Below, in pieces: positions 4,724-43,443 of a stretch of 64,000 nucleotides of DNA (position 1 is the stretch's first letter; each line of letters starts with the position of its first letter). The stretch is from Candidatus Binataceae bacterium (GTDB taxonomy: Bacteria; Desulfobacterota; Binatia; Binatales; Binataceae): positions 272,926 through 336,925 of the forward strand of contig CAWCTG010000022.1 of assembly GCA_963798375.1 (NCBI GenBank). The letters run 5' to 3'. The notes under the pieces are model-generated. The model did no database searches, was not told where the DNA came from, and saw only the letters and a list, made by a program, of their open reading frames with translations. The position numbers and the translations under genes were made by a program.

Positions 4724-5578
4724 TCATTTGGTGGCTTCGATGAGCATGGTCGTGCCGAGGATGGAGGGTAGTACCGGGCGGACCGTCTTCAGCACGGAAG
4801 AGAGTTTTACCGCTTGCCGAATCAGCCAGATCTTTTGGTACCGCTCCGAAAGCTGGATGTCCAGTAAGTCGCCGGCGTCGACGCACGTTCTTATGTTCAC
4901 CTTGCGGAATGCGCCAAACAGTTCACCAGCCTCGCGCTTGGTGTAGATCTTGGTGCCAAGGCTTTCATTGTGGTGGAACATAACTTCGCGCGCCGAGCGC
5001 AACGGCTTGCCGCTAAGCGGGCCGAACAGCAACCATTCAAAGAACACGGTCATGCCCCGCGCATGATAGATCATGATCCGCGCCACCCCTCCCGGTTTTA
5101 GCACCCGGTGGATCTCAGCCACCGCCTTTGGGGTGTCCGGAGTATGATGAATGACGCCGTACGAATAGACCAGGTCGAAAAAGCCGTCTTCGAACTCGAG
5201 CGCCTCGACGTCACCCACCGCAACGTCGGCGGCGAGACCGTCGAGCGTTAATCTTTCTCGCACCAGGTCAACGGAGGCCTCTGTCAGATCTCTTCCCCAC
5301 AAACTGGCTCCGCTACGAGCCCATTGAATGAAATCCGAGCCGGAGCCCAACCCTACCTCGAGGACGCGCTTTCCGGCCGCTTCGCCGAACCGCGCGAAGC
5401 CAGGAATAAAAGGCGCGTACTCATACCTCGAGCTGTCTATTTCCTCAAAGAACCTGCGCCGATCAGCAGTACTCTGGCCGAACCGAGACTCGCAGGGCTC
5501 GCTTTGCCAATGCCGCCTTACGGCGTCCTTGAGCGAGGGATTTGCTTCGTTCAGCGCTCGATAGATTTCTGCACCCAT
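4724..5578 (-). CDS. Class I SAM-dependent methyltransferase
   Basis: VLEVGLGSGSD motif I, GDVEALEFEDGFFDLVYSYGVIHH and VLKPGG. Confidence 0.9.
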   Translation of the reverse strand: MGAEIYRALNEANPSLKDAVRRHWQSEPCESRFGQSTADRRRFFEEIDSSRYEYAPFIPGFARFGEAAGKRVLEVGLGSGSDFIQWARSGASLWGRDLTEASVDLVRERLTLDGLAADVAVGDVEALEFEDGFFDLVYSYGVIHHTPDTPKAVAEIHRVLKPGGVARIMIYHARGMTVFFEWLLFGPLSGKPLRSAREVMFHHNESLGTKIYTKREAGELFGAFRKVNIRTCVDAGDLLDIQLSERYQKIWLIRQAVKLSSVLKTVRPVLPSILGTTMLIEATK

Positions 5579-5710
5579 GAATTATCCCGTAATCTTGGCG
5601 CTCCGGTGCTGGCGGTCATTGATGGCAATCCGGGGCTGAGCGCGGCGCTCGGCGCTCAAGGTGCAATGGCCTAAACTCGCGATTCAGCACTGCACCTCTT
5701 CGATTCTCTT

Positions 5711-32039: not shown

Positions 32040-32410
32040 TGAGCCGCACAATCCGCCGGTCGGTAATCCGATGCGCGACCATCCGGAGTAACGACTCGTG
32101 GTCAACCGAGTCGAACAAATTCGGACATCGGCCTCAAGCACCCGGTTCACGCTGGCGGCGTCTTGATGGCGCTAACCTGGCGCCGCTGGTGCGTGCCGGG
32201 CGCGAAATTCGTCGATGGAGTTCGCCAACACCGACCGAAAAACTTTACTCACTCAAGCGACAACCGACCGAGCGAAGCCGCCTCATCATGATTTAATTCA
32301 GCCGGCCGCCGGGAACATATCGCGCTCGTCGCGCGGGACCGGCTCTCATCTCAAGCGCGAACCTGACGTGCGATGGTACGCCCATCGCCGCACGCTTGCG
32401 CACGGATCGA

Positions 32411-34117
32411 TCATCCCATCGGACCCTGGTACACCTCGGCGAAGCGAAGCCCGAGCTCCATGGGAATCGCGAGGTTGGCATCGCGATTGGTCTTCAGGCA
32501 AACGACTGCCGGTCCGTCCGATGCCTTCGCGCCCTTCAGCGCCGCTTCGAGGTCTTCCATGCGATCGACGTAAAACGATTGGCAGCCCAGGCCCTCGGCG
32601 ACCCGGTCCCATCGCACTGTCCCCATCTCGGTGCCGAACGTCCGTCCGTAGAGCATCCGTTCATTCGGCTCCTCCATCGTCCATGAACCTTCGGCGAACA
32701 CCACGGTCCTGACCTTCAGGCCTTCGCGCGCCGCCGATTGCATCTCCATGAAGTTGAACCCCGCAGCTCCGTCGCCGCTCACGCACACCACCTCGCGCGC
32801 CGGGTTGCCAAGCTTCGCTCCAATGGCGGAAGGGATTCCCGTGCCAAGCATGCCTAGTTCAAGAATGTTCAGGTACGACCGCGGCTTGGTCGATGGCAAA
32901 AACCAGGCTGCCCACAACGAAGTGTTGCCGCCGTCGGCGACATAGATGCTGTCCGAGCCGAAGACTTTGCCGATTGTTTGCATCGCGAGCGCCGGATGAA
33001 TCCCGGGTCCGCGCCAGGCCACGATCGGTGCGAATCGCTCCTCCCACCATTTGCGGGCAACCTCTCGATAGCGCTGCGTGTCCTCCCCGCCCTTGGGCCG
33101 GACTCGCTCCGTCTTGAGCACACGCAACAGGCCCTCGAGCGCGCTTTTCGCGTCGGAAACGATCCCGAGCGCCAGCGGCCGCGTGACGCCCATGTTGCGC
33201 TGATCGATATCCACCTGGATGAGCTTCTGATTGGCGGGATCGCCCCAGTACTTGTCGTAGGGAATGTCAAGGTTACCCATCCTCGAGCCCGCGACCAGGA
33301 TGACGTCGGACTCGCGGCGCGCGAGGTCCGCACCAACGCCGTAGCCGTACAGGAAGTTGGGATGATCGACCGGCACCGATGACCGCCCGGCTATCGTACC
33401 GATGACGGGACAGTTGAGCGCCTCGACGACCGCCAGGAGCGCTTCGTTTGCTCCGGCGCGATCGACTCCGGCACCCGAGATCACAATCGGCCGTTTGGCG
33501 CCGGCGAGCATCCGAGCCGCCTCCTCGAGCTGCGCTTCCGAGGGCCGCGGACCCGCTGCCCGGTACTGATCCGGCCTCAGCAGCCGGACCTTTGCGTCGT
33601 CACCCATCGCGTACATCACGGGCGCCGGTATCTCGATTTGAATCGGCCCCGGCCTCCCGGTCCACATTTCGCGAAAGGCAATCCTCATCACTTCGGGGAT
33701 ACGCTCCCACGACAGAATCGGACCGCTCCATTTGACCACCGGCTTGAAGACTTCGAGCTGATCCTGACCCTGGAAGGTCGCCGGTGACGACGGATAAACG
33801 ATCCCCAGGCGATGCTGCGCGGTGAGAACGACGACGGGCACGCCCTCGTGCCGCGCCGTGATCACGCCGGGGATCAGATTCGCAGACCCGGGACCGGGGT
33901 TACCTAGCACCACCGCCACCTGGCCGGTCGTCTTGTATAGCCCTTCCGCCATGTGGACGGCGGCGGCCTCGTGGCGAACGGGGACGAATCGCACTTCGTA
34001 CTGCTCCAACTTGGCGAGAATCGGATCGACCTCCGGACAGGGGATTCCGAACACGAACCTGACACCCTCGCCGACCAGACATCGGATAAGAAGCTCTGCT
34101 CCAGTAATTTCGCTCAT
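32411..34117 (-). CDS. Thiamine pyrophosphate-binding protein (acetolactate synthase/decarboxylase superfamily)
   Basis: VRHEAAAVHMAEG, GPGSAN, LGMLGTGIPSAIGAKL and TPP motif GDGAAGF. Confidence 0.92.
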   Translation of the reverse strand: MSEITGAELLIRCLVGEGVRFVFGIPCPEVDPILAKLEQYEVRFVPVRHEAAAVHMAEGLYKTTGQVAVVLGNPGPGSANLIPGVITARHEGVPVVVLTAQHRLGIVYPSSPATFQGQDQLEVFKPVVKWSGPILSWERIPEVMRIAFREMWTGRPGPIQIEIPAPVMYAMGDDAKVRLLRPDQYRAAGPRPSEAQLEEAARMLAGAKRPIVISGAGVDRAGANEALLAVVEALNCPVIGTIAGRSSVPVDHPNFLYGYGVGADLARRESDVILVAGSRMGNLDIPYDKYWGDPANQKLIQVDIDQRNMGVTRPLALGIVSDAKSALEGLLRVLKTERVRPKGGEDTQRYREVARKWWEERFAPIVAWRGPGIHPALAMQTIGKVFGSDSIYVADGGNTSLWAAWFLPSTKPRSYLNILELGMLGTGIPSAIGAKLGNPAREVVCVSGDGAAGFNFMEMQSAAREGLKVRTVVFAEGSWTMEEPNERMLYGRTFGTEMGTVRWDRVAEGLGCQSFYVDRMEDLEAALKGAKASDGPAVVCLKTNRDANLAIPMELGLRFAEVYQGPMG

Positions 34118-34392
34118 AAGATCCTCCCGTGGGACCGCCGGTTAGTCGGTCTTGAAGCAATAAAGCAGTGAAAAAAATCGAAACAAAAAAACGCCTGGGC
34201 AGCGGCAACCCCTGTCCTCTCAATGCGGACACTACGATCGAACCCAAATCCGAGGCAAGCCGCGCCTCAGCATTCGTATCTAGTGGGATAAACCGCGGGA
34301 AAATTCCCGGAGGTTAGCACGCGAAAAATTCCCGGTACGGGATTCCTGTAAGAGATTTTAGATTCCGACCGGGACGCGGCGCGCTGATCCCT

Positions 34393-36819
34393 TTACGGCA
34401 GGCAGACGGCGTGCGGCGGCGATTGCTTGAGGCAGGCGACCAGCGGCGTCATCACCGGCCGCGCAGCGCCGATGAACTCAGTGATGCTGTTCCCGTTGGC
34501 GTTCGCCACCCAAACGTTGCCTCCGGCATCAATCGCGATGCCATAGGGGTCGTTGAGACCGCCGCCGGTGTAGCCGCTGGCGGGGGAAATGGCGCTACCC
34601 GTAGAGCTGAACTCGCTGATGCTGTCGACGTAGCCGCTGATGCTTTGGTTCGCCACCCAGACATTGCCCGCGCCGTCTACCGCGATGTCAACGGGTCCGT
34701 GCAGGCCGCCGCCGGTGTAGCCGATGGAAGGAGAAATTGCGCTGCCAATGGAGCTGAACTCGCTGATGCTCTCGTCGTTCCCGTTCCCCGCCCAGACGTT
34801 GCCCGTGGCGTCTACCGCGATGCCAAAGGCGTTGTTTAGGCCGCCGCCGGTGTAGCCGGTGGAAGGGGAAATTGCGCTGCCGGTGGAGCTCAACTCGCTG
34901 ATGCTGTTGGCGGCTGCTCCGTTCGTCACCCATACGTCGCCGGCGACGTCAATCGCGATGCCTTGGGGTCCGTCGAGGCCGCCGCCAGTGTAACCGGTCG
35001 AGGGAGAAATGGCGCTGCCCGTGGCGCTAAGCTCGCTGATACTGACCCCATTGAAGTTTCCCGCCCAGACGTTGCCCGCGGCGTCAATCGCGATGCTAGT
35101 GGGATCCTTTAGGCCGCCGCCGGTATAACCGCTGGAGGGGGAAATGGCACTGCCCGAGGAGCTGAACTCGCTGATGCCGCCGATTACAAATTCGCCACAG
35201 TTCCCGCCACAGTTCGGCGTCCACACGTTGCCCGCGGCGTCCACCGCGATGCCATAGGGTCTCGAGAGTCCGCCGCCGGTGAAGGGCGAACCCGTTGCCG
35301 CGCCGCCCGTGGGGTTGAGCTCGCTGATGCTGTCGCCGTGGAAGTTCGCCGTCCAGACGTTGCCTGCGGCGTCCACCGCCATGCCCAACGGCTCGCTTAG
35401 ACCGCCGCCGATGTATTCGAGCGCCAACGTGAAGTCGCTGGGCGCCGAACTCTGGTCGGGCGTATATGGCGGTGTCGCCGCCAGACCCTGCACGGCGAAG
35501 ATGCGGCTGACGTTGGAAACAGGATTCGTCGCCATCATGTGCGCTGCCTCAAGCGTTGTCCCGGTTGCCGGCGTACCCGTGCAGGCGAACAGGATGTCAC
35601 AGGGCAAACTAGCGGCGGAGCAGCTCGGCAGCGTCGCGCTTGGCCCCGTGCTGTTAACGCAACCGGCAATGATGTTGGCGATGGTGTCCGTCTGCTCCAG
35701 CCCGTCCGGCACGCCGAGGATGCTCGTTTGCGGGATGCCGGTATTGCTTGGGCTCCCGCCGGACACCAGGTAGCTCTGCACCAGGTTTGTCGTCGCCAGG
35801 TTGACGGCGTTGGTAAGCCCCGTGGTATTGGTCGAAGATGTCCCGATGAACGCGCCGGTCGAATCGCTGAACTGCGCCAGAGCCCACTCGGCCGCAACCG
35901 TAGTCAGCTCATTGACCGTGGCGAACGCCGAAGCAGTAAGCGCGTCGCACGGTCCCGTAAGCGACATCATCCCGATCGCCGGGTTGGTCCCTCCGCCCGG
36001 ATTGCCACTCTCAACGATGAGATAGGTTTCGGGATTATCCGCCGGGCAGATCCAGGAGGTGAAGCTGAACGAGCCCGAGCTGTCCGAGGCGGTGGAAGCC
36101 AGCTCCGTCGCGCCGCTGCCGTAGCCGCTGCTCCCGGCAGCATACAGCGTCACCCGCGCGCCCGAGACTGCGGTGAGCCCACCGTGCACCGTCCCCGAAA
36201 GCGCCGGCGCAGGGGTCGCCGTTGCGGTCGCGGTGGCCGTGGCAGTCGCGGTGGCCGTGGCAGTCGCGGTGGCCGTTGCAGTAGCGGTTGCAGTCGCCGT
36301 CGCGGTGGCGGTCGGGGTCGGCTTCTTCTGCGTGGCTTTCCCCTTCAGCTCGACGGTCGCCGAGCTTGGCCCCCTGATCGCGCCACTGCTGATATTGTTG
36401 ATGCTGATGGTCCCATCTACGTTCTTGCCGGGTCCGTTGGGGATGAACTCAACGTCAACCTCCTGGCTTATCGAGCCCGGAAGCGTGAGCGTTCCGCCCG
36501 CGGGAGAAACCTCGGGCGGGAATACAATCGTGAAGTTGGTGGCGTCGGTGCCGCCGGGCGCGCCGACAGTTACGGTCATTGGCAGCGTACCTTTGTTCGC
36601 GATGTTGAAATGCTTGGTCTCGGAGAATTTGCCCTTGTCGATATCGACGCTGTAGCTCAGCGTCTTGGGCGAGACAGAAAGTTTACTTACGGCCGTCTTG
36701 TTGTCTGGCGACGCATCGTCATCCGATTGCGCCAACGCCGGACGCGCAAACGCGGCAATCAAAAGCAACAGCGGGAAACCAAGGCCGCCGATTGACCATG
36801 TGAACGACTTGAAGCGCAT
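34393..36819 (-). CDS. Secreted NHL-repeat protein with N-terminal Ig-like domain and (Thr-Ala)n linker
   Basis: Signal peptide, beta-rich Ig-like domain, TATATA linker at ~36200-36320, and seven repeats of GGGLxxPxxIA(V/I)DxxGNVWxxN. Confidence 0.88.
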   Translation of the reverse strand: MRFKSFTWSIGGLGFPLLLLIAAFARPALAQSDDDASPDNKTAVSKLSVSPKTLSYSVDIDKGKFSETKHFNIANKGTLPMTVTVGAPGGTDATNFTIVFPPEVSPAGGTLTLPGSISQEVDVEFIPNGPGKNVDGTISINNISSGAIRGPSSATVELKGKATQKKPTPTATATATATATATATATATATATATATATATATPAPALSGTVHGGLTAVSGARVTLYAAGSSGYGSGATELASTASDSSGSFSFTSWICPADNPETYLIVESGNPGGGTNPAIGMMSLTGPCDALTASAFATVNELTTVAAEWALAQFSDSTGAFIGTSSTNTTGLTNAVNLATTNLVQSYLVSGGSPSNTGIPQTSILGVPDGLEQTDTIANIIAGCVNSTGPSATLPSCSAASLPCDILFACTGTPATGTTLEAAHMMATNPVSNVSRIFAVQGLAATPPYTPDQSSAPSDFTLALEYIGGGLSEPLGMAVDAAGNVWTANFHGDSISELNPTGGAATGSPFTGGGLSRPYGIAVDAAGNVWTPNCGGNCGEFVIGGISEFSSSGSAISPSSGYTGGGLKDPTSIAIDAAGNVWAGNFNGVSISELSATGSAISPSTGYTGGGLDGPQGIAIDVAGDVWVTNGAAANSISELSSTGSAISPSTGYTGGGLNNAFGIAVDATGNVWAGNGNDESISEFSSIGSAISPSIGYTGGGLHGPVDIAVDGAGNVWVANQSISGYVDSISEFSSTGSAISPASGYTGGGLNDPYGIAIDAGGNVWVANANGNSITEFIGAARPVMTPLVACLKQSPPHAVCLP

Positions 36820-37082
36820 TGTAAAGGGGAAGTTTCCGATTATACGTTCGGATCGTCGTGTCGCCAGCTAAAGTACGCCCACAGAGCAACTTTTGAAAGC
36901 GAGACGGCAACGGGCGAGGTGATAAACCCTTCACCCTTCTAACCGGGCGAGGCCCGCATCCTTGTTTTAACAGACGGGAAGTCCGAAACCCGTAAGCGGT
37001 TTCGGCCATCGGGGCGTGACTTAAAACAGCGCTAGTTGGGCGGAGAGGGGTGCCGGGCGCGCCCCTGCTATAATCTCCTCCG

Positions 37083-38890: not shown

Positions 38891-39393
38891 TGGCAATGAA
38901 AACGAACCGCGCCGCGGCGAATGATCCGGCCGCCCGGCTTGGCGATCCGCGCGTGCGGGAGTTTGTCGCCGGCGCGCGCATCGCCCATCTGGCGACCGCC
39001 GACGGCGCCGGCGCTCCGCACAACGTCCCGCTCTGCTACTGGTTCGACGGCGAGCGCATCTACTTCGCGATCGACGAGAAACCCAAGCGTCAAACCGGTT
39101 TGGCGCTCAAGCGGATGCGCAATATCGCGGAAAATCCGCGCGTCGCTATCGTGATCGATCATTATGAAGAAGATTGGTCGCAACTCGCGTACGTGCTGAT
39201 TCGCGGACACGCGCGCGTGGTCGAAGACGCCGAAGAATACATCGGCGCGATACGTCATCTGCGCGACAAATATCTGCAGTACCGAGCGATGAGTCTGACG
39301 CCGGAGAAAAATCCAATCGTGAAGATCGAACCGGTCAGCGTGCACGTGTGGGGCGCGCGTTTCAGCAGGGGTGACCCCTGCACCCAGTGTTAA
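38890..39393 (+). CDS. PPOX-class probable F420-dependent oxidoreductase (Rv0121-like)
   Basis: ARIAHLATADGAGAPHNVP, AIDEKPK, RMRNIAENPRVA..DHYEEDWSQL; ATG overlaps the HEAT stop. Confidence 0.88.
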   Translation: MAMKTNRAAANDPAARLGDPRVREFVAGARIAHLATADGAGAPHNVPLCYWFDGERIYFAIDEKPKRQTGLALKRMRNIAENPRVAIVIDHYEEDWSQLAYVLIRGHARVVEDAEEYIGAIRHLRDKYLQYRAMSLTPEKNPIVKIEPVSVHVWGARFSRGDPCTQC

Positions 39394-39403
39394 GAGAAGA
39401 TGC

Positions 39404-40618
39404 GTGACTACGCGCCTTGACGAAATCGCACTTGCGCTCGGCCACGCGCGACTCGACGGATGGCTGTTCTATGACTTCCGCTTGAGCGACCCGCTCGCGT
39501 ATCGAATCCTCGGCCTTTCGGAGGACGGCATCGCAACCCGGCGATGGTTCTGCTTCGTCCCGGCGCATGGCAAGCCGCGGGCGATCGTGTCCGCGGTCGA
39601 AGCGCATCGGCTCGACGCGCTCGGTGTCGAAAAAATCGTCTATCGTTCGCACGACGAAATGCTCGCGGCATTGCGCACGGCGCTTGGCGACGCGCGGCGA
39701 ATCGCGATGGACTATTCACCGGGATGCGCAATTCCGTACGTCTCGCGCGTCGATGCGGGCACGGTCGAAATCGTCCGCGCGATGGGAATCAAGGTCGTCA
39801 CGGCGGCCGATCTTATTCAGCGCTTCGAGGCGAGCTTGACGCGCGAGGAACTGGCCGGCCATCGGCGGGCGGCTCGCGCACTTCGATCGATCGTGGACGA
39901 AACCTTCAGTGAGATCGGGCAGTCGATTTCGGCCGGGCGGCCGGTCAGCGAAGTCTCCGTGCAGGAGTCCGTGATGGCGCGGTTTGCCGCCCAAGGTCTG
40001 GTGACCCACGCGCCGCCGATTGTCGCCGTCAATGAGCATAGCGCCGATCCGCATTACGGGCCGACCCCGAAACACGACCGCGCGATTGGCCGCGGCGATT
40101 TCATCCTGCTCGACTTGTGGGCCAAGGAGACCGCGCCCGACAGTATCTACGCCGACTTCACCTGGGTCGCGTTCGCCGGCGACGAGGTTTCCGCCGAACA
40201 CGCGCGGGTGTTCAAAATTGTCGCGGATGCGCGCGACGCGACGGTGGATCTGGTGCAGCGTCTAGTCGCAGCCGGCGAACCGGTCAGCGGCCGCGAAGCC
40301 GATCGGGCTGCGCGCTCGGTGATCGAGGCCGCCGGCTTCGGCGACGCGTTCGTACATCGCACGGGCCATTCGATCGGCCGCGAAGTGCACGGCACCGGCG
40401 CGAATCTGGACTCGCTGGAAACGCTGGACGACCGCATTCTCATCGACAACACATGTTTTTCGGTCGAGCCGGGAATCTATTTGCCGGGAAGATTCGGCGT
40501 GCGCAGTGAGCTTGACATGACGATCGAAAACGGGCGCGCGCCGGTCAGCGGCGAGCCGCGCCAGCGCGAGATCGTCGCGCTTCTGGCTGGGGTCACTTCC
40601 AAGCCCAGCATGAGTTGA
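39404..40618 (+). CDS. M24-family metallopeptidase (Xaa-Pro aminopeptidase-like)
   Basis: DGWLFYDF, ADPHY, LLDLW, YADFTW, HRTGHSIG and FSVEPGIY; GTG start at 39404. Confidence 0.92.
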   Translation: MTTRLDEIALALGHARLDGWLFYDFRLSDPLAYRILGLSEDGIATRRWFCFVPAHGKPRAIVSAVEAHRLDALGVEKIVYRSHDEMLAALRTALGDARRIAMDYSPGCAIPYVSRVDAGTVEIVRAMGIKVVTAADLIQRFEASLTREELAGHRRAARALRSIVDETFSEIGQSISAGRPVSEVSVQESVMARFAAQGLVTHAPPIVAVNEHSADPHYGPTPKHDRAIGRGDFILLDLWAKETAPDSIYADFTWVAFAGDEVSAEHARVFKIVADARDATVDLVQRLVAAGEPVSGREADRAARSVIEAAGFGDAFVHRTGHSIGREVHGTGANLDSLETLDDRILIDNTCFSVEPGIYLPGRFGVRSELDMTIENGRAPVSGEPRQREIVALLAGVTSKPSMS

Positions 40619-40623
40619 TTGTA

Positions 40624-40646
40624 GTGAAACCCACCGTGGGTTTCAC
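40624..40646. other. Perfect 10-bp hairpin downstream of the peptidase
   Basis: gtgaaaccca-ccg-tgggtttcac. Confidence 0.7.
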
Positions 40647-40738
40647 ACTTCCTTGGGCACGGGTGACCTCCTTCGGCTTCGCTCAGGACAGGCTCTGCAC
40701 CCAGTGAAAAGTGAAAAGTGAAGATGCGGGCGGAGTTT

Positions 40739-40834
40739 ACCCTGAGCGAAGTCGAAGGGGCCCTGTCAGAAGGGGTTGATCAAGAAGAGATCGCGCGTCC
40801 GTTTTTCTGTCATCCCGACCGAAGTGGAGGGACC
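40739..40834. repeat. REP-like palindromic motifs (ccctgagcgaagtcgaaggg; gtcatcccgaccgaagtggagggac)
   Basis: The first is an approximate reverse complement of the module at 40670-40688. The second shares 16 nt (gtcatcccgaccgaag) with 60573-60588. Confidence 0.7.
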
Positions 40835-41069
40835 CGCGGATCCTTGCCTCGCCCTTCATCGGGAGGTGTCACAGACACGCGGCTGCGCCGGCGGCGCGGG
40901 TGAGGGACATTTGCGCGGCGCGATTGTCTCATGCGCCGTATTGCGCCAGCGCGAGATCGCCACGATCCTCCCCCGCCCACTTCCAAGGCCGAGCCGAGCG
41001 TGTAAACAATGGTCGCCCACTTTAAACCAGGCCGAGCCTGTAAAACTAAGCTGTTCCTCAGAAACGAAC

Positions 41070-41852
41070 ATGAATTTCAAGCAATCCAACTTTGGCGAAA
41101 TCCTGGACTCCGAACGGGAAATGGTCTTGCGAGCGGAGGGACGTTTCGCGGCGTATTACGTGAACGCATTCCGCTTTTGTGAACTTTTAGCCGGGTTCGT
41201 TGAGACGGTGGATCCCGACCGGATGATATTTATCTTGTTCCTGTCACAAGTACGCAAGCATCACACGCTCGCCCTTTTTTCGGCAGTCCGCCTGCACCGC
41301 ATTCAAGCCATGATGGACTTGCGCCAGACGCTTGAAGCTGGAGCTTGTGCGGCGTACGCGATTGCTAATATCAATCCAGCCGACTTTGCGGACAAGGACG
41401 AAGACGGCATTCTGAGTCCTTCCCAAGAACTGGCCAAGAAACGCTACAAGTGGCTCGAGCAGAATTTCGAGGAAGGTTCAAACGCGATCAAGGGGATAAA
41501 GGAAATCATCAACAAATCGAGTGCGCACTCTAACATTGCGGATGCGCATTTGAACTTCAATTTTGACGCCGTTAACGGGCATTTCGATACACCCTTCTTC
41601 GACTTCGAAGACGATCATATCGTCAAGACCGATCTGTGGCTCATCGCGAACGTGGCCATGGGACTGATGCGGCTCTTTTCCAAAATCAACAGCACCCTCA
41701 ACGTGGTCGTCTTCACCGACGAATTCGAGGCGCGGATAAAGGAATTAGGAACTGAGAACGGCCGGCTTCGAACTGAGATGATGCAGACGGAACGCTATCA
41801 GCGGGTCAGTAAACTGCTTGAGAAGCGGGCTGGGAAGCCAACACGATCGTGA
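41070..41852 (+). CDS. Hypothetical alpha-helical protein (accessory cargo, possibly HEPN/DUF5677-like)
   Basis: Long ORF with visibly lower GC than neighbours; contains AMMDLRQTLEAG and SSAHSN. The upstream extension to 40776 runs through repeats and was discarded. Confidence 0.7.
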   Translation: MNFKQSNFGEILDSEREMVLRAEGRFAAYYVNAFRFCELLAGFVETVDPDRMIFILFLSQVRKHHTLALFSAVRLHRIQAMMDLRQTLEAGACAAYAIANINPADFADKDEDGILSPSQELAKKRYKWLEQNFEEGSNAIKGIKEIINKSSAHSNIADAHLNFNFDAVNGHFDTPFFDFEDDHIVKTDLWLIANVAMGLMRLFSKINSTLNVVVFTDEFEARIKELGTENGRLRTEMMQTERYQRVSKLLEKRAGKPTRS

Positions 41853-41909
41853 CTTTACTTGCGACGGGAACCGTTGCAGAAGGCTGCTAAGATGGTGAGG
41901 TCACACAAC

Positions 41910-42440
41910 ATGGACGAAAAAGTCGCTAGTGTTCTACGCAAAGCGTCCGAAGCTTGGCGAGACGTGATGGCAATCTACGCCGGAGCAATGTGCAGCGCGC
42001 AGATTCTTGAAGGCGAGCTGGTTCAGGTTTTGTACTTCCTCCGCATAAAAAGTGGCGAACTGAAGGAACCAGGTTTCGACTGGGCCTACCACCAGATGAT
42101 GCGACAGAAGCCGAGCGAGGTCCTGGATTGGATTCGAGGCGCGGGAGGCAACCTTTCCTACGAGAATGAGAAGATCATCCGACAGGCACTACGCCTTAGA
42201 AACTTCTTGGCTCACGAATTCTTTCACAAACACAACCCGGTGATGAGTGGAACGCAGTGTAAACAAATCGCTTCAAAACTTAAGAAAATTGACGCAGAGC
42301 TGGAAACGGCTTTCGAGCTGCTCCAGCCGCTCCGCCAAAAGCTAGAGACGCAGCTCGGCCTCTCAGTTGACCGGCAGATCACTTCGACGAACTTTCAAAA
42401 GCGCTTCGTCGAGGCTTTCGAGTCATTCAACGACGAGTAG
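41910..42440 (+). CDS. Hypothetical protein with Rx4H (RNFLAH) HEPN-like motif
   Basis: GAGG RBS before ATG 41910; helical protein with ALRLRNFLAHEFF. Confidence 0.7.
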   Translation: MDEKVASVLRKASEAWRDVMAIYAGAMCSAQILEGELVQVLYFLRIKSGELKEPGFDWAYHQMMRQKPSEVLDWIRGAGGNLSYENEKIIRQALRLRNFLAHEFFHKHNPVMSGTQCKQIASKLKKIDAELETAFELLQPLRQKLETQLGLSVDRQITSTNFQKRFVEAFESFNDE

Positions 42441-42517
42441 CGCCAGCGTGAGATCGCCGCGATCCTGGCCACGCCCACTTCCAAGCCCAAGGCGGGCGTG
42501 GCAAGCATAGTTCGAGC

Positions 42518-43285
42518 ATGATTCGGGCGGTCATATTCGATCTCGACGGGACCCTCGCCGACACCGAGCGGTTGCATTTCGCGGCCTTCAACGAAGCGTT
42601 GCGTCCCGAAGGGATCGAAATCCCACGCGACGAATACTTCGCGCGGCTGATTGGACTTAACGATCACGATTGTTTCGCCACGATCCTGCGCGAGAATCGG
42701 ATGGACGCGGGCGAGGAACATATCGCGAGCCTGATCGCGCGCAAAACCGCGGTCTATCAAGCGATGCTTGCGGATCGCGAGGTTCTCTACCCGGGCGCCG
42801 AGAAGTTCGCGCGCGAATGCGCGCATCGGTTTCCGCTGATGATCGCGACCGGCACGCTGCGCGCCGAGGCCGAAGCGATTCTTCGCCGCGCCGGACTTCG
42901 CGAGTTGTTTCTCGACATTATCGCGGCGGAGGACGTCGAGCGCGGCAAGCCCGAGCCCGACGGTTTCATCGCGGCGCTTGGCCGGCTTGGATTTATCCTG
43001 CGCCATCGCGATCCGATCCGGGCCGAGGAATGCATTGCGGTCGAGGATACGCGGGCCGGAATCGAAGCGGCGCATCGCGCGGGCATGAAAGCGATCGCGC
43101 TATGCCATAGCGCGCCGGCGGCCGATCTGGCGGCGGCCGAGGTCGTGCGCGATTCGATTTGCGGGCTTGACCTGGACGAGATTTTGCGCGCGCTGCGCAG
43201 GGGTGACCTCCTTCGGCTTCGCTCAGGACAGGCTCTGCACCCAATGTTAAGGCCGTGCTCCGTTGTCGCGCGCAGCCCCAGCTAA
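42518..43285 (+). CDS. HAD-family phosphatase (beta-PGM-like)
   Basis: IFDLDGTLADTE, GKPEPD and AVEDTRAGIEAA; the C-terminus reads through a repeat element. Confidence 0.92.
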   Translation: MIRAVIFDLDGTLADTERLHFAAFNEALRPEGIEIPRDEYFARLIGLNDHDCFATILRENRMDAGEEHIASLIARKTAVYQAMLADREVLYPGAEKFARECAHRFPLMIATGTLRAEAEAILRRAGLRELFLDIIAAEDVERGKPEPDGFIAALGRLGFILRHRDPIRAEECIAVEDTRAGIEAAHRAGMKAIALCHSAPAADLAAAEVVRDSICGLDLDEILRALRRGDLLRLRSGQALHPMLRPCSVVARSPS

Positions 43286-43286
43286 C

Positions 43287-43344
43287 GTCTTAATACTGGC
43301 CTCCCGTGCCAACGGGTCTTAATGCTGGCCAGCCGTGCCAACGG
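43287..43344. repeat. 29-bp tandem repeat, two copies
   Basis: gtcttaatactggcctcccgtgccaacgg / gtcttaatgctggccagccgtgccaacgg (26/29). Confidence 0.8.
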
Positions 43345-43443
43345 CCAGGGGTGCCCCCTGCACCCGATGAAAAGTGAAGAGTAAAATGCTTAAAATCGAA
43401 AACCACAGCGATCGCAATTTTTCAACGCCCTGACAGGAGCACG

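Follow-up and report, generated by a model that had tools for sequence, protein, structure and literature searches.

The locus described here raises the question of why the end of one bacterial gene should stand three times ahead of the next gene, and whether such copies are attachment (att) sites of a mobile element or were left behind by the recombination of the host. It lies in a 64,000-nt stretch of DNA (the window, by which we mean the whole stretch) from an uncultured soil bacterium, Candidatus Binatus (Binatota), and comprises the gene for an M24 peptidase, the downstream gene for a HAD-family hydrolase, and the DNA between them. The last ~60–80 nt of the peptidase gene, its tail, are present in three same-orientation copies together with a partial tandem echo, and nowhere else in the 64 kb (Table 1). 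As argued below, we consider the peptidase–HAD junction to be a chromosomal hotspot of insertion and rearrangement driven by host recombination and not a mobile element, a reading that in our judgement has an even chance of being right. Labels of the type L001–L182 denote the related loci and contigs with which the window was compared.

The peptidase gene end is present three times

An earlier inspection of the letters and open reading frames (ORFs) of this DNA, the sequence-only reading, had reported a triplicated peptidase 3′ end, and all three copies were recovered at the positions given, in numbers far beyond chance. With up to two mismatches allowed, GCGCCAGCGNGAGATCGNCNCG matched only the three copy sites in the 64 kb (0.01 expected), and CACTTCCAAGSCC gave three matches in the window against 0.11 expected. 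Copies 1 and 3 are 79% identical over 63 nt, and copies 2 and 3 are 85% identical over 61 nt (BLAST E 1.6e-12). The same reading had described the middle copy as degenerate, with a one-base deletion and a further partial echo, and this also holds: the echo reached a local alignment score of 30, as compared with a maximum of 29 among ~2,900 random windows. A run of Tandem Repeats Finder (TRF) did not call the echo. Copy 2 is in frame with the following gene, orfA, only by accident, and the interval between copies 2 and 3 has a GC content of ~47–55% vs 62–70% in the flanks. Read in the peptidase frame, copy 3 is open to a TGA at 42519–42521, which overlaps the HAD start codon.

Since the identical arrangement was assembled independently in four other metagenome contigs from four samples (L084–L087), it is not an assembly artefact. 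The metagenomic source and the repeat-rich region might raise that suspicion, but a chimeric contig is hardly credible when, in addition, the cargo with both flanking tails is found in four contigs of a sister lineage (L172–L175).

Table 1. Features in and around the peptidase–HAD junction, in window coordinates
Feature	Coordinates	Strand	Description
Repeat-element hairpin GGGGTGACCCCTGCACCC	39366..39400	+	PNPOx/peptidase junction; encodes last residues of PNPOx-like protein
M24 (Xaa-Pro) peptidase	39404..40618	+	Pfam PF00557, E 1.2e-35
Copy 1	40558–40618	+	Within peptidase gene, 3′ tail; reads RQREIVALLAGVTSKPSMS, then stop
REP/MITE-like non-coding element	40616..40790	+	Left end AGTT-GATTGTAGT; hairpin GTGAAACCCACCGTGGGTTTCAC at 40624–40646
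"Y" GC-rich repeat modules	40791..40942	+	Homologous to L172 sequence 5′ of cargo and to part of L002/L009 inserts
Copy 2	40943–~41015	+	Degenerate; 1-nt deletion near 40970 relative to copy 3
Echo	~41014–41058	+	Diverged partial tandem re-copy of second half of copy 2, ~43-nt period
orfA	41070..41852	+	260 aa, all-helical, no known family
orfB	41910..42440	+	176 aa, helical, 17 homologues
Right cargo junction	42424..42442	+	orfB last codons CATTCAACGACGAGTAG resemble peptidase 40542–40558 CGGTCAGCGGCGAGCCG
Copy 3	42440–42517 (feature to 42521)	+	Tail relic in ancestral position, immediately 5′ of HAD
HAD-family hydrolase (beta-phosphoglucomutase-like)	42518..43285	+	Domain search; 255 aa vs 229 aa in relatives

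The far copy marks the ancestral end of a dispensable gene tail

The longest ORF of the peptidase begins at 39371, and the GTG start used here was inferred from homologues of 404 aa. We compared it with 120 homologues of 83–100% identity, some of them named Candidatus Binatus. The gene order PNPOx–peptidase–HAD–GST is kept across Binatus and Binataceae metagenome-assembled genomes (MAGs), and in most species the peptidase gene directly abuts HAD. Its commonest ending is ...PTSKxKPGVAT, with a TAG that precedes the HAD start by 7 nt (L001, L007, L010, and L011). Because most relatives run the peptidase into HAD with copy-3-like termini, copy 3 lies where the gene ancestrally ended, in agreement with the sequence-only reading. 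The translational coupling through an ATGA overlap that was proposed along with this position found no counterpart. The majority of relatives do have the two genes directly joined, as had been predicted, but through a TAG and a 7-nt spacer; the ...SIVRA ending read from copy 3 occurs in 0 of the 120 closest homologues, and the ATGA overlap in no intact relative. The relic in the window has 13 nt where intact relatives have 12 (gcaaGCATAGttcgagc vs gcaaCTTAGcccgatc; gcaaGCATAG vs gcaaCTTAG), and therefore its TAG is out of frame and the frame reads through to the ATGA. The idea that the relic serves as a promoter (TTCCAA-N16/17-TAAAAC 5′ of the ATG) was considered as well, and a consensus scan of the window did not pick it up.

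The region after RQREIVAL is hypervariable among these homologues (LINLI, LLN, LKGT, LLKRSLD, LFEGT, and others). As more distant Binataceae peptidases terminate 3–6 residues past IVALL, the PTSK... extension is genus-specific and dispensable; premature stops within it are found in L003, L006, and L089. The copy inside the gene had been taken for a replacement terminus supplied by the insert, a view that comparison with the sister strain L081 does not support. The in-gene tail of L081 is canonical (PTSKLKPGVT before the stop) and is joined to a repeat element at its last ACTT, and copy 1 is the orthologous tail of the window, which lacks 6 nt of it and differs further by substitutions. Copy 1 is thus of host type and not an evident element-borne mimic. 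The stop codon itself is made at the junction with the repeat element (ACT/TGA) in both the window and L081. The L179 peptidase, whose tail meets the element already at its first ACTT, ends in LLAGVT.

The insert is a composite of repeat elements and a gene cassette

The sequence-only reading had proposed that ~1.9 kb was inserted into the peptidase gene, probably in two events. Consistent with this, the insert is composite, with a block of repeat elements on the left and a gene cassette on the right. In the first element of the block, 26 inserted nt are nested within a GGGGTGACC...CTGCACCC hairpin, and another nested palindrome occupies 40725–40758. Members of this repeat family read, in order, (C)ACTT(G/A)ATTnAATGT, GAAACCCnnnnGGGTTTC, GGCAGGGGTGACCCCTGCACCC, and GATGCGGGACTTCGTCCC; the family's own terminus is CACTTnATTnAATGT / CACTT, and its hairpins are GAAACCC..GGGTTTC and GGGGTGACCCC. 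Dozens of copies lie at unrelated intergenic sites in Binatus loci, singly or as inverted doublets. Multi-copy and intergenic, with a conserved terminus and hairpins, the block at 40616–40942 has the properties of repetitive extragenic palindromic (REP) sequences or miniature inverted-repeat transposable elements (MITEs). The 64-kb window, to which the scan was confined, holds no REP-associated tyrosine transposase (RAYT) or insertion sequence (IS)-type cognate transposase, and Rfam returned no credible match for the repeats.

Besides the hairpin before the peptidase and the element after it, the family has a copy at 43194–43251 and another 3′ of HAD at 43346–43380, and no further ones in the 64 kb. 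Repeat elements shape the 3′ ends of three consecutive genes, since they provide the last residues of PNPOx, the stop of the peptidase, and a 26-residue extension of HAD, whose last ~26 codons are encoded by the copy at 43194–43251. In relatives, the stop of the GST gene is likewise provided by the element, through its ACTTAATT end (e.g., at 12629 of L006). The block meets the peptidase tail where an ACTT/AGTT of the tail matches the terminal ACTT of the element, at two ACTT positions across strains. An interpretation of ACTT as a target-site duplication or as an IS200/IS605-type target was dropped, since ACTT belongs to the element's own terminus at unrelated loci; only terminal microhomology between the element and the two ACTT sites of the tail can be claimed. 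Another small repeat family is apparently present between HAD and GST (43287–43344), where a 29-nt unit, GTCTTAATACTGGCCNCCCGTGCCAACGG, stands twice in tandem, the two copies being 89% alike; units similar to it are found again in L172, within its repeat cluster (5530–5640).

The cassette is low in GC and holds two genes, orfA and orfB. More than 400 homologues of orfA were found at 55–60% identity in very distant taxa. Its family members have ~252 aa, are 55–60% identical among Binatota, candidate phyla radiation (CPR) bacteria, and an archaeal MAG, and have no Pfam or NCBIfam model. This distribution suggests frequent horizontal transfer. The longest ORF over orfA (TTG, 40776–41852, 358 aa) includes both copy 2 and the echo as in-frame sequence; as homologues and gene calls all start at ATG 41070, the extension looks accidental. 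The predicted structure of orfA is all-helical (predicted local distance difference test score, pLDDT, 88), without a significant fold match and with weak HEPN-like hints. In orfB and its homologues, RNFLAHEFFH is nearly invariant and forms a HEPN-like motif (Rx4H). When we checked this assignment, R-N-F-L-A-H was nearly invariant and the model all-helical (pLDDT 87), with no Pfam, NCBIfam, or PADLOC match and no significant fold match. That the two genes form an obligate pair was rejected, as each is found alone elsewhere: orfA beside SLFN/AlbA_2, a methyltransferase, and RES-Xre (L176), an IS3 transposase (L180), or Fic (L182), and orfB once beside a DncV-like/patatin pair (of the type of cyclic-oligonucleotide-based anti-phage signalling systems, CBASS). 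Searches for cargo function gave nothing significant in Pfam, PADLOC, NCBIfam, PHROGs, a PDB sequence search, or PDB fold searches. Elsewhere, the neighbourhoods of each gene resemble defence islands. A role in defence or as a toxin is a reasonable guess, and no more.

The site is occupied differently in related genomes

At least nine lineages (L002, L008, L009, L015, L033, L090, L168, L169, and L170) carry non-coding inserts of 100–310 bp at the peptidase–HAD junction. All repeat-only inserts start with the same Binatus-wide element, which is present at the site in L179 too. Both this locus and L081–L083, from the same samples as the window and with flanks 96–99% identical to it, have a different ~1.9 kb there, encoding an alpha/beta-hydrolase (277 aa, 3-oxoadipate enol-lactonase-like, below NCBIfam cut-offs) and a cupin (133 aa). 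In L172–L175, PNPOx and a cluster of repeat elements are followed by one tail copy without an echo, then by orfA and orfB, another tail copy, and HAD. The same genes are therefore separated by nothing, by repeats only, by orfA/orfB, or by the hydrolase and cupin, as in a hotspot of horizontal gene transfer (HGT) or a flexible islet. Alternative cargos, which the sequence-only reading had proposed to catalogue, thus exist in the form of repeat-only inserts, hydrolase plus cupin, and orfA/orfB without the peptidase, and the site is not invariant. At the L172–L175 loci (e.g., L172:4743–6000), the M24 peptidase and a HEAT-repeat gene are absent, which looks like a deletion between repeat elements.

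Between the window and L172, the cargo is 90–94% identical, tail 3 is 92% identical, and the flanking genes are 91–96% identical. Since cargo and flanks have diverged to the same degree, the tail–orfA–orfB–tail unit predates the split of the two lineages and was inherited with the flanks. Paralogous tails differ by 15–21% and orthologous copies of tail 2 by 14%, which is compatible with copies that would have started out identical if the insertion took place slightly before the L172 split. The relic 5′ of HAD in L081 has the junction GTGAACAATAGT/CGCCC in common with the boundary between copy 2 and the echo in the window, and the scaffold of the two strains is thus of common descent; the echo is absent from L172. 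A simple deletion hybrid between echo and copy 3 was rejected as the origin of the L081 relic, since the middle of the relic does not fit.

Junction features suggest homology-guided events of the host

At the right cargo junction, similarity between copy 3 and the peptidase gene reaches 13–16 nt 5′ of GCGCCAGCG, into the last codons of orfB (...CATTCAACGACGAG in orfB and CGGTCAGCGGCGAG in the peptidase, which match at 10/13 positions in the window and at 11/14 in L172). The last codons of orfB are native to this gene, being found in unrelated contexts (L177 and L178), which places the right junction within imperfect microhomology. On the left side, the start regions of orfA and of the L172 HAD gene share the 8-nt GAACATGA. 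Together, the junctions suggest illegitimate events guided by homology, in which either the template was switched or a circle bearing the tail entered by a single crossover.

From these features we infer the insertion mechanism and the order of events. Insertions into the last ~80 bases of the peptidase gene would be tolerated because its last ~15–20 codons are dispensable and fast-evolving. One addition consists of ~325 bp of REP/MITE-like hairpin elements of the genome-wide family, which meet the tail at ACTT/AGTT and thereby create the present stop; the other, nested with it, is the orfA–orfB cassette. Both additions are flanked by copies of the host junction that extend roughly from GCGCCAGCG to the HAD ATG (~80 nt). 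The copies would then be by-products, or scars, of insertion by host-type recombination and not att sites. Candidate mechanisms are microhomology-guided template switching, illegitimate joining, and a single crossover of tail-carrying circular DNA; homology-guided events would duplicate the host stretch between two switch points. The resulting direct repeats and the elements may later have driven further change, namely the echo and the loss of the peptidase in one lineage, and the cargo was probably swapped for hydrolase and cupin in the sister strain by homologous recombination in the conserved flanks.

Several observations weigh against this reconstruction. The homology of copy 2 starts at 40557/8 (GCGCCAGCG), the same nucleotide at which the uninterrupted identity of copy 3 starts, and a fixed crossover point of site-specific recombination would explain such a shared start. 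A flanking duplication of ~80 nt is long for an illegitimate insertion. The tail copies, only 79–85% alike, may be old or may never have been identical. Finally, the raised divergence between the window and L081 beside the cargo is partly due to HAD, which evolves faster in all comparisons, so that the case for an import of the L081 cargo by homologous recombination is only suggestive.

One alternative is a remnant of the kind left by cis-mobilizable elements (CIMEs), in which the tail would be the attB of a tyrosine or serine recombinase encoded elsewhere and two elements carrying tail mimics (attP) would have integrated in tandem, their integrase being lost or never present; mobilisation of the cargo in trans would still be feasible. 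Two blocks bracketed by three copies of a gene 3′ end in the same orientation, in the manner of attL–attI–attR, the common starting nucleotide of copies 2 and 3, a low-GC and foreign cargo, and an alternative cargo at the same site would all fit. However, no integrase or transposase was found at the junction in the ~45 related Binatus/Binataceae loci fetched, and ~50 ORFs of the window searched against Pfam include no integrase, transposase, reverse transcriptase (RT), or IntI, in line with the absence of an integrase noted in the sequence-only reading. Likewise, no integrase-bearing user of the site was detected in the loci fetched, the window, or the IMG/VR contigs searched with the tail; these viral contigs contained no tail motif and no orfA relative. 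The repeats do share an orientation, but their longest identical runs are 9–14 nt, so there is no identical core >14 nt. The divergence of the cargo equals that of the flanks, the in-gene tail is of host type with a stop from the repeat element, most occupants are just genome-wide repeat elements, and the right junction lies in microhomology. The att-like behaviour suggested by the sequence-only reading, that is, an integrase-type mechanism, is accordingly not supported, and a CIME-like history has a low probability. Less likely still is that the tail is a true site for a trans-acting recombinase encoded elsewhere, with integrase-less cassettes of 1.4–1.9 kb cycling in and out by means of tail mimics; if true, Binatota would have a cassette system akin to integrons or CIMEs that docks at the coding end of a gene. 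A tRNA-linked island is not supported, as no tRNA was found in the window. A diversity-generating retroelement was also rejected, since no RT domain is present in the window and the differences between copies involve all bases and are not adenine-specific.

Two further explanations dispense with an integrase, and we regard both as unlikely, to about the same degree as the CIME-like one. An array of ~80-nt tails might have arisen beforehand by slippage or unequal crossing-over, with the elements and the cassette entering later at or near unit boundaries. The echo, a diverged partial tandem re-copy in the same region, speaks for such a process, and tandem units would explain the common left boundary of copies 2 and 3, but two independent insertions exactly at unit boundaries are then needed, a plain array of whole tails is found in no relative examined, and the microhomology between orfB and copy 3 ties insertion to duplication. 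Alternatively, circular DNA bearing a tail (a plasmid fragment or looped-out cassette) could have recombined with the chromosomal tail in a RecA-dependent single crossover of the Campbell type. Some 80 nt are enough homology for RecA, same-orientation repeats around an insert would follow without any integrase, and the reverse reaction would explain the loss of cargo in some lineages. How the first circle acquired a tail must still be explained, however, and a simple Campbell event does not predict cargo ends that coincide exactly with ORF boundaries and show microhomology reaching into orfB.

If the hotspot reading with host recombination is correct, the locus is a strain-resolved case, from an uncultured phylum, of a dispensable gene end turned into a landing pad. 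Repeat elements there rewrite the C-termini and stops of three neighbours, foreign genes would be gained along with a duplication of host sequence and with no visible recombinase, and the resulting repeats would then drive cargo swaps and even the loss of a host gene. It also serves as a caution that direct repeats of a gene end do not by themselves prove an att site. In addition, two uncharacterised families emerge as candidates for a function in defence or as toxins, namely those of orfA, which is very widespread and strongly conserved, and of orfB, which has a HEPN-like motif.

Surroundings of the locus

Other ORFs of the window include housekeeping enzymes (Pfam scan of ~50 ORFs). A cluster for polysaccharide or capsule biosynthesis and export occupies 2473–30032 on the minus strand (Polysacc_synt_2, glycosyltransferases, many methyltransferases, Wzi, and Poly_export/SLBB). 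A second strain-variable region (~32400–37000, compared with L081/L085:1–3100) lies 5′ of an LplA-like gene. In the window and L084, the minus strand there encodes a thiamine pyrophosphate (TPP) enzyme and an NHL-repeat protein of 808 aa; L081 and L085 have instead a plus-strand gene of 783 aa. Because L084 and L085 both carry orfA/orfB, this upstream variation is not linked to cargo type. Just 5′ of the LplA-like gene, at 36985–37003, a second type of hairpin repeat, GGGAAGTCC-GAAACCnnnnnnGGTTTC-GG, was found, and it is present at the equivalent place in L002, L033, L081, L084, and L090.

Comparison with known systems

Integron cassettes and clusters of attC sites lacking integron-integrases (CALINs) are similar to this locus in having small integrase-less gene cassettes with a similar repeat after each. 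The class was nevertheless rejected, as the repeat is the coding end of the peptidase itself and lacks the attC architecture (RYYYAAC...GTTRRRY): no attC cores were found, the sole GTT being GTTCGAG and not GTTRRRY, with no RYYYAAC partner. Nor was an IntI or attI detected beside the array, as no window ORF gave a Phage_integrase-type match, and the sister cargo has long intergenic regions. The repeat elements agree with REP sequences, their hairpin-forming doublets (REPINs), or MITEs in being multi-copy, intergenic, GC-rich hairpins with a conserved terminus, single or in inverted doublets. They differ in that no RAYT or transposase partner was identified and in their position on gene 3′ ends, where they give stops or C-terminal residues to three neighbours.

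Tandem accretion of CIMEs with integrative and conjugative elements (ICEs) or integrative and mobilizable elements (IMEs) at gene 3′ ends creates an attL–attI–attR arrangement, as for ICESt1 and a CIME at fda (PMC5704250). Three repeats for two blocks are what the locus has in common with this arrangement. Unlike in CIMEs, no integrase-bearing element is found at the site in relatives, the repeats are long, 79–85% alike, and without an identical core >14 nt, one of the blocks consists only of REP/MITE-like repeats, and the cargo looks vertically inherited.

Chromosomal HGT hotspots, or flexible genomic islets, are a concept of comparative genomics for variable regions between conserved core genes. 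Here the insert lies within a coding 3′ end, and its bracketing by diverged ~80-nt copies of that end is unusual for such hotspots. The likeness lies in the fixed position between the same core genes, the different cargo of near-identical strains, the empty sites in other species, and the lack of a dedicated recombinase, and turnover at this site, as at such hotspots, plausibly proceeds by homologous recombination in the flanks.

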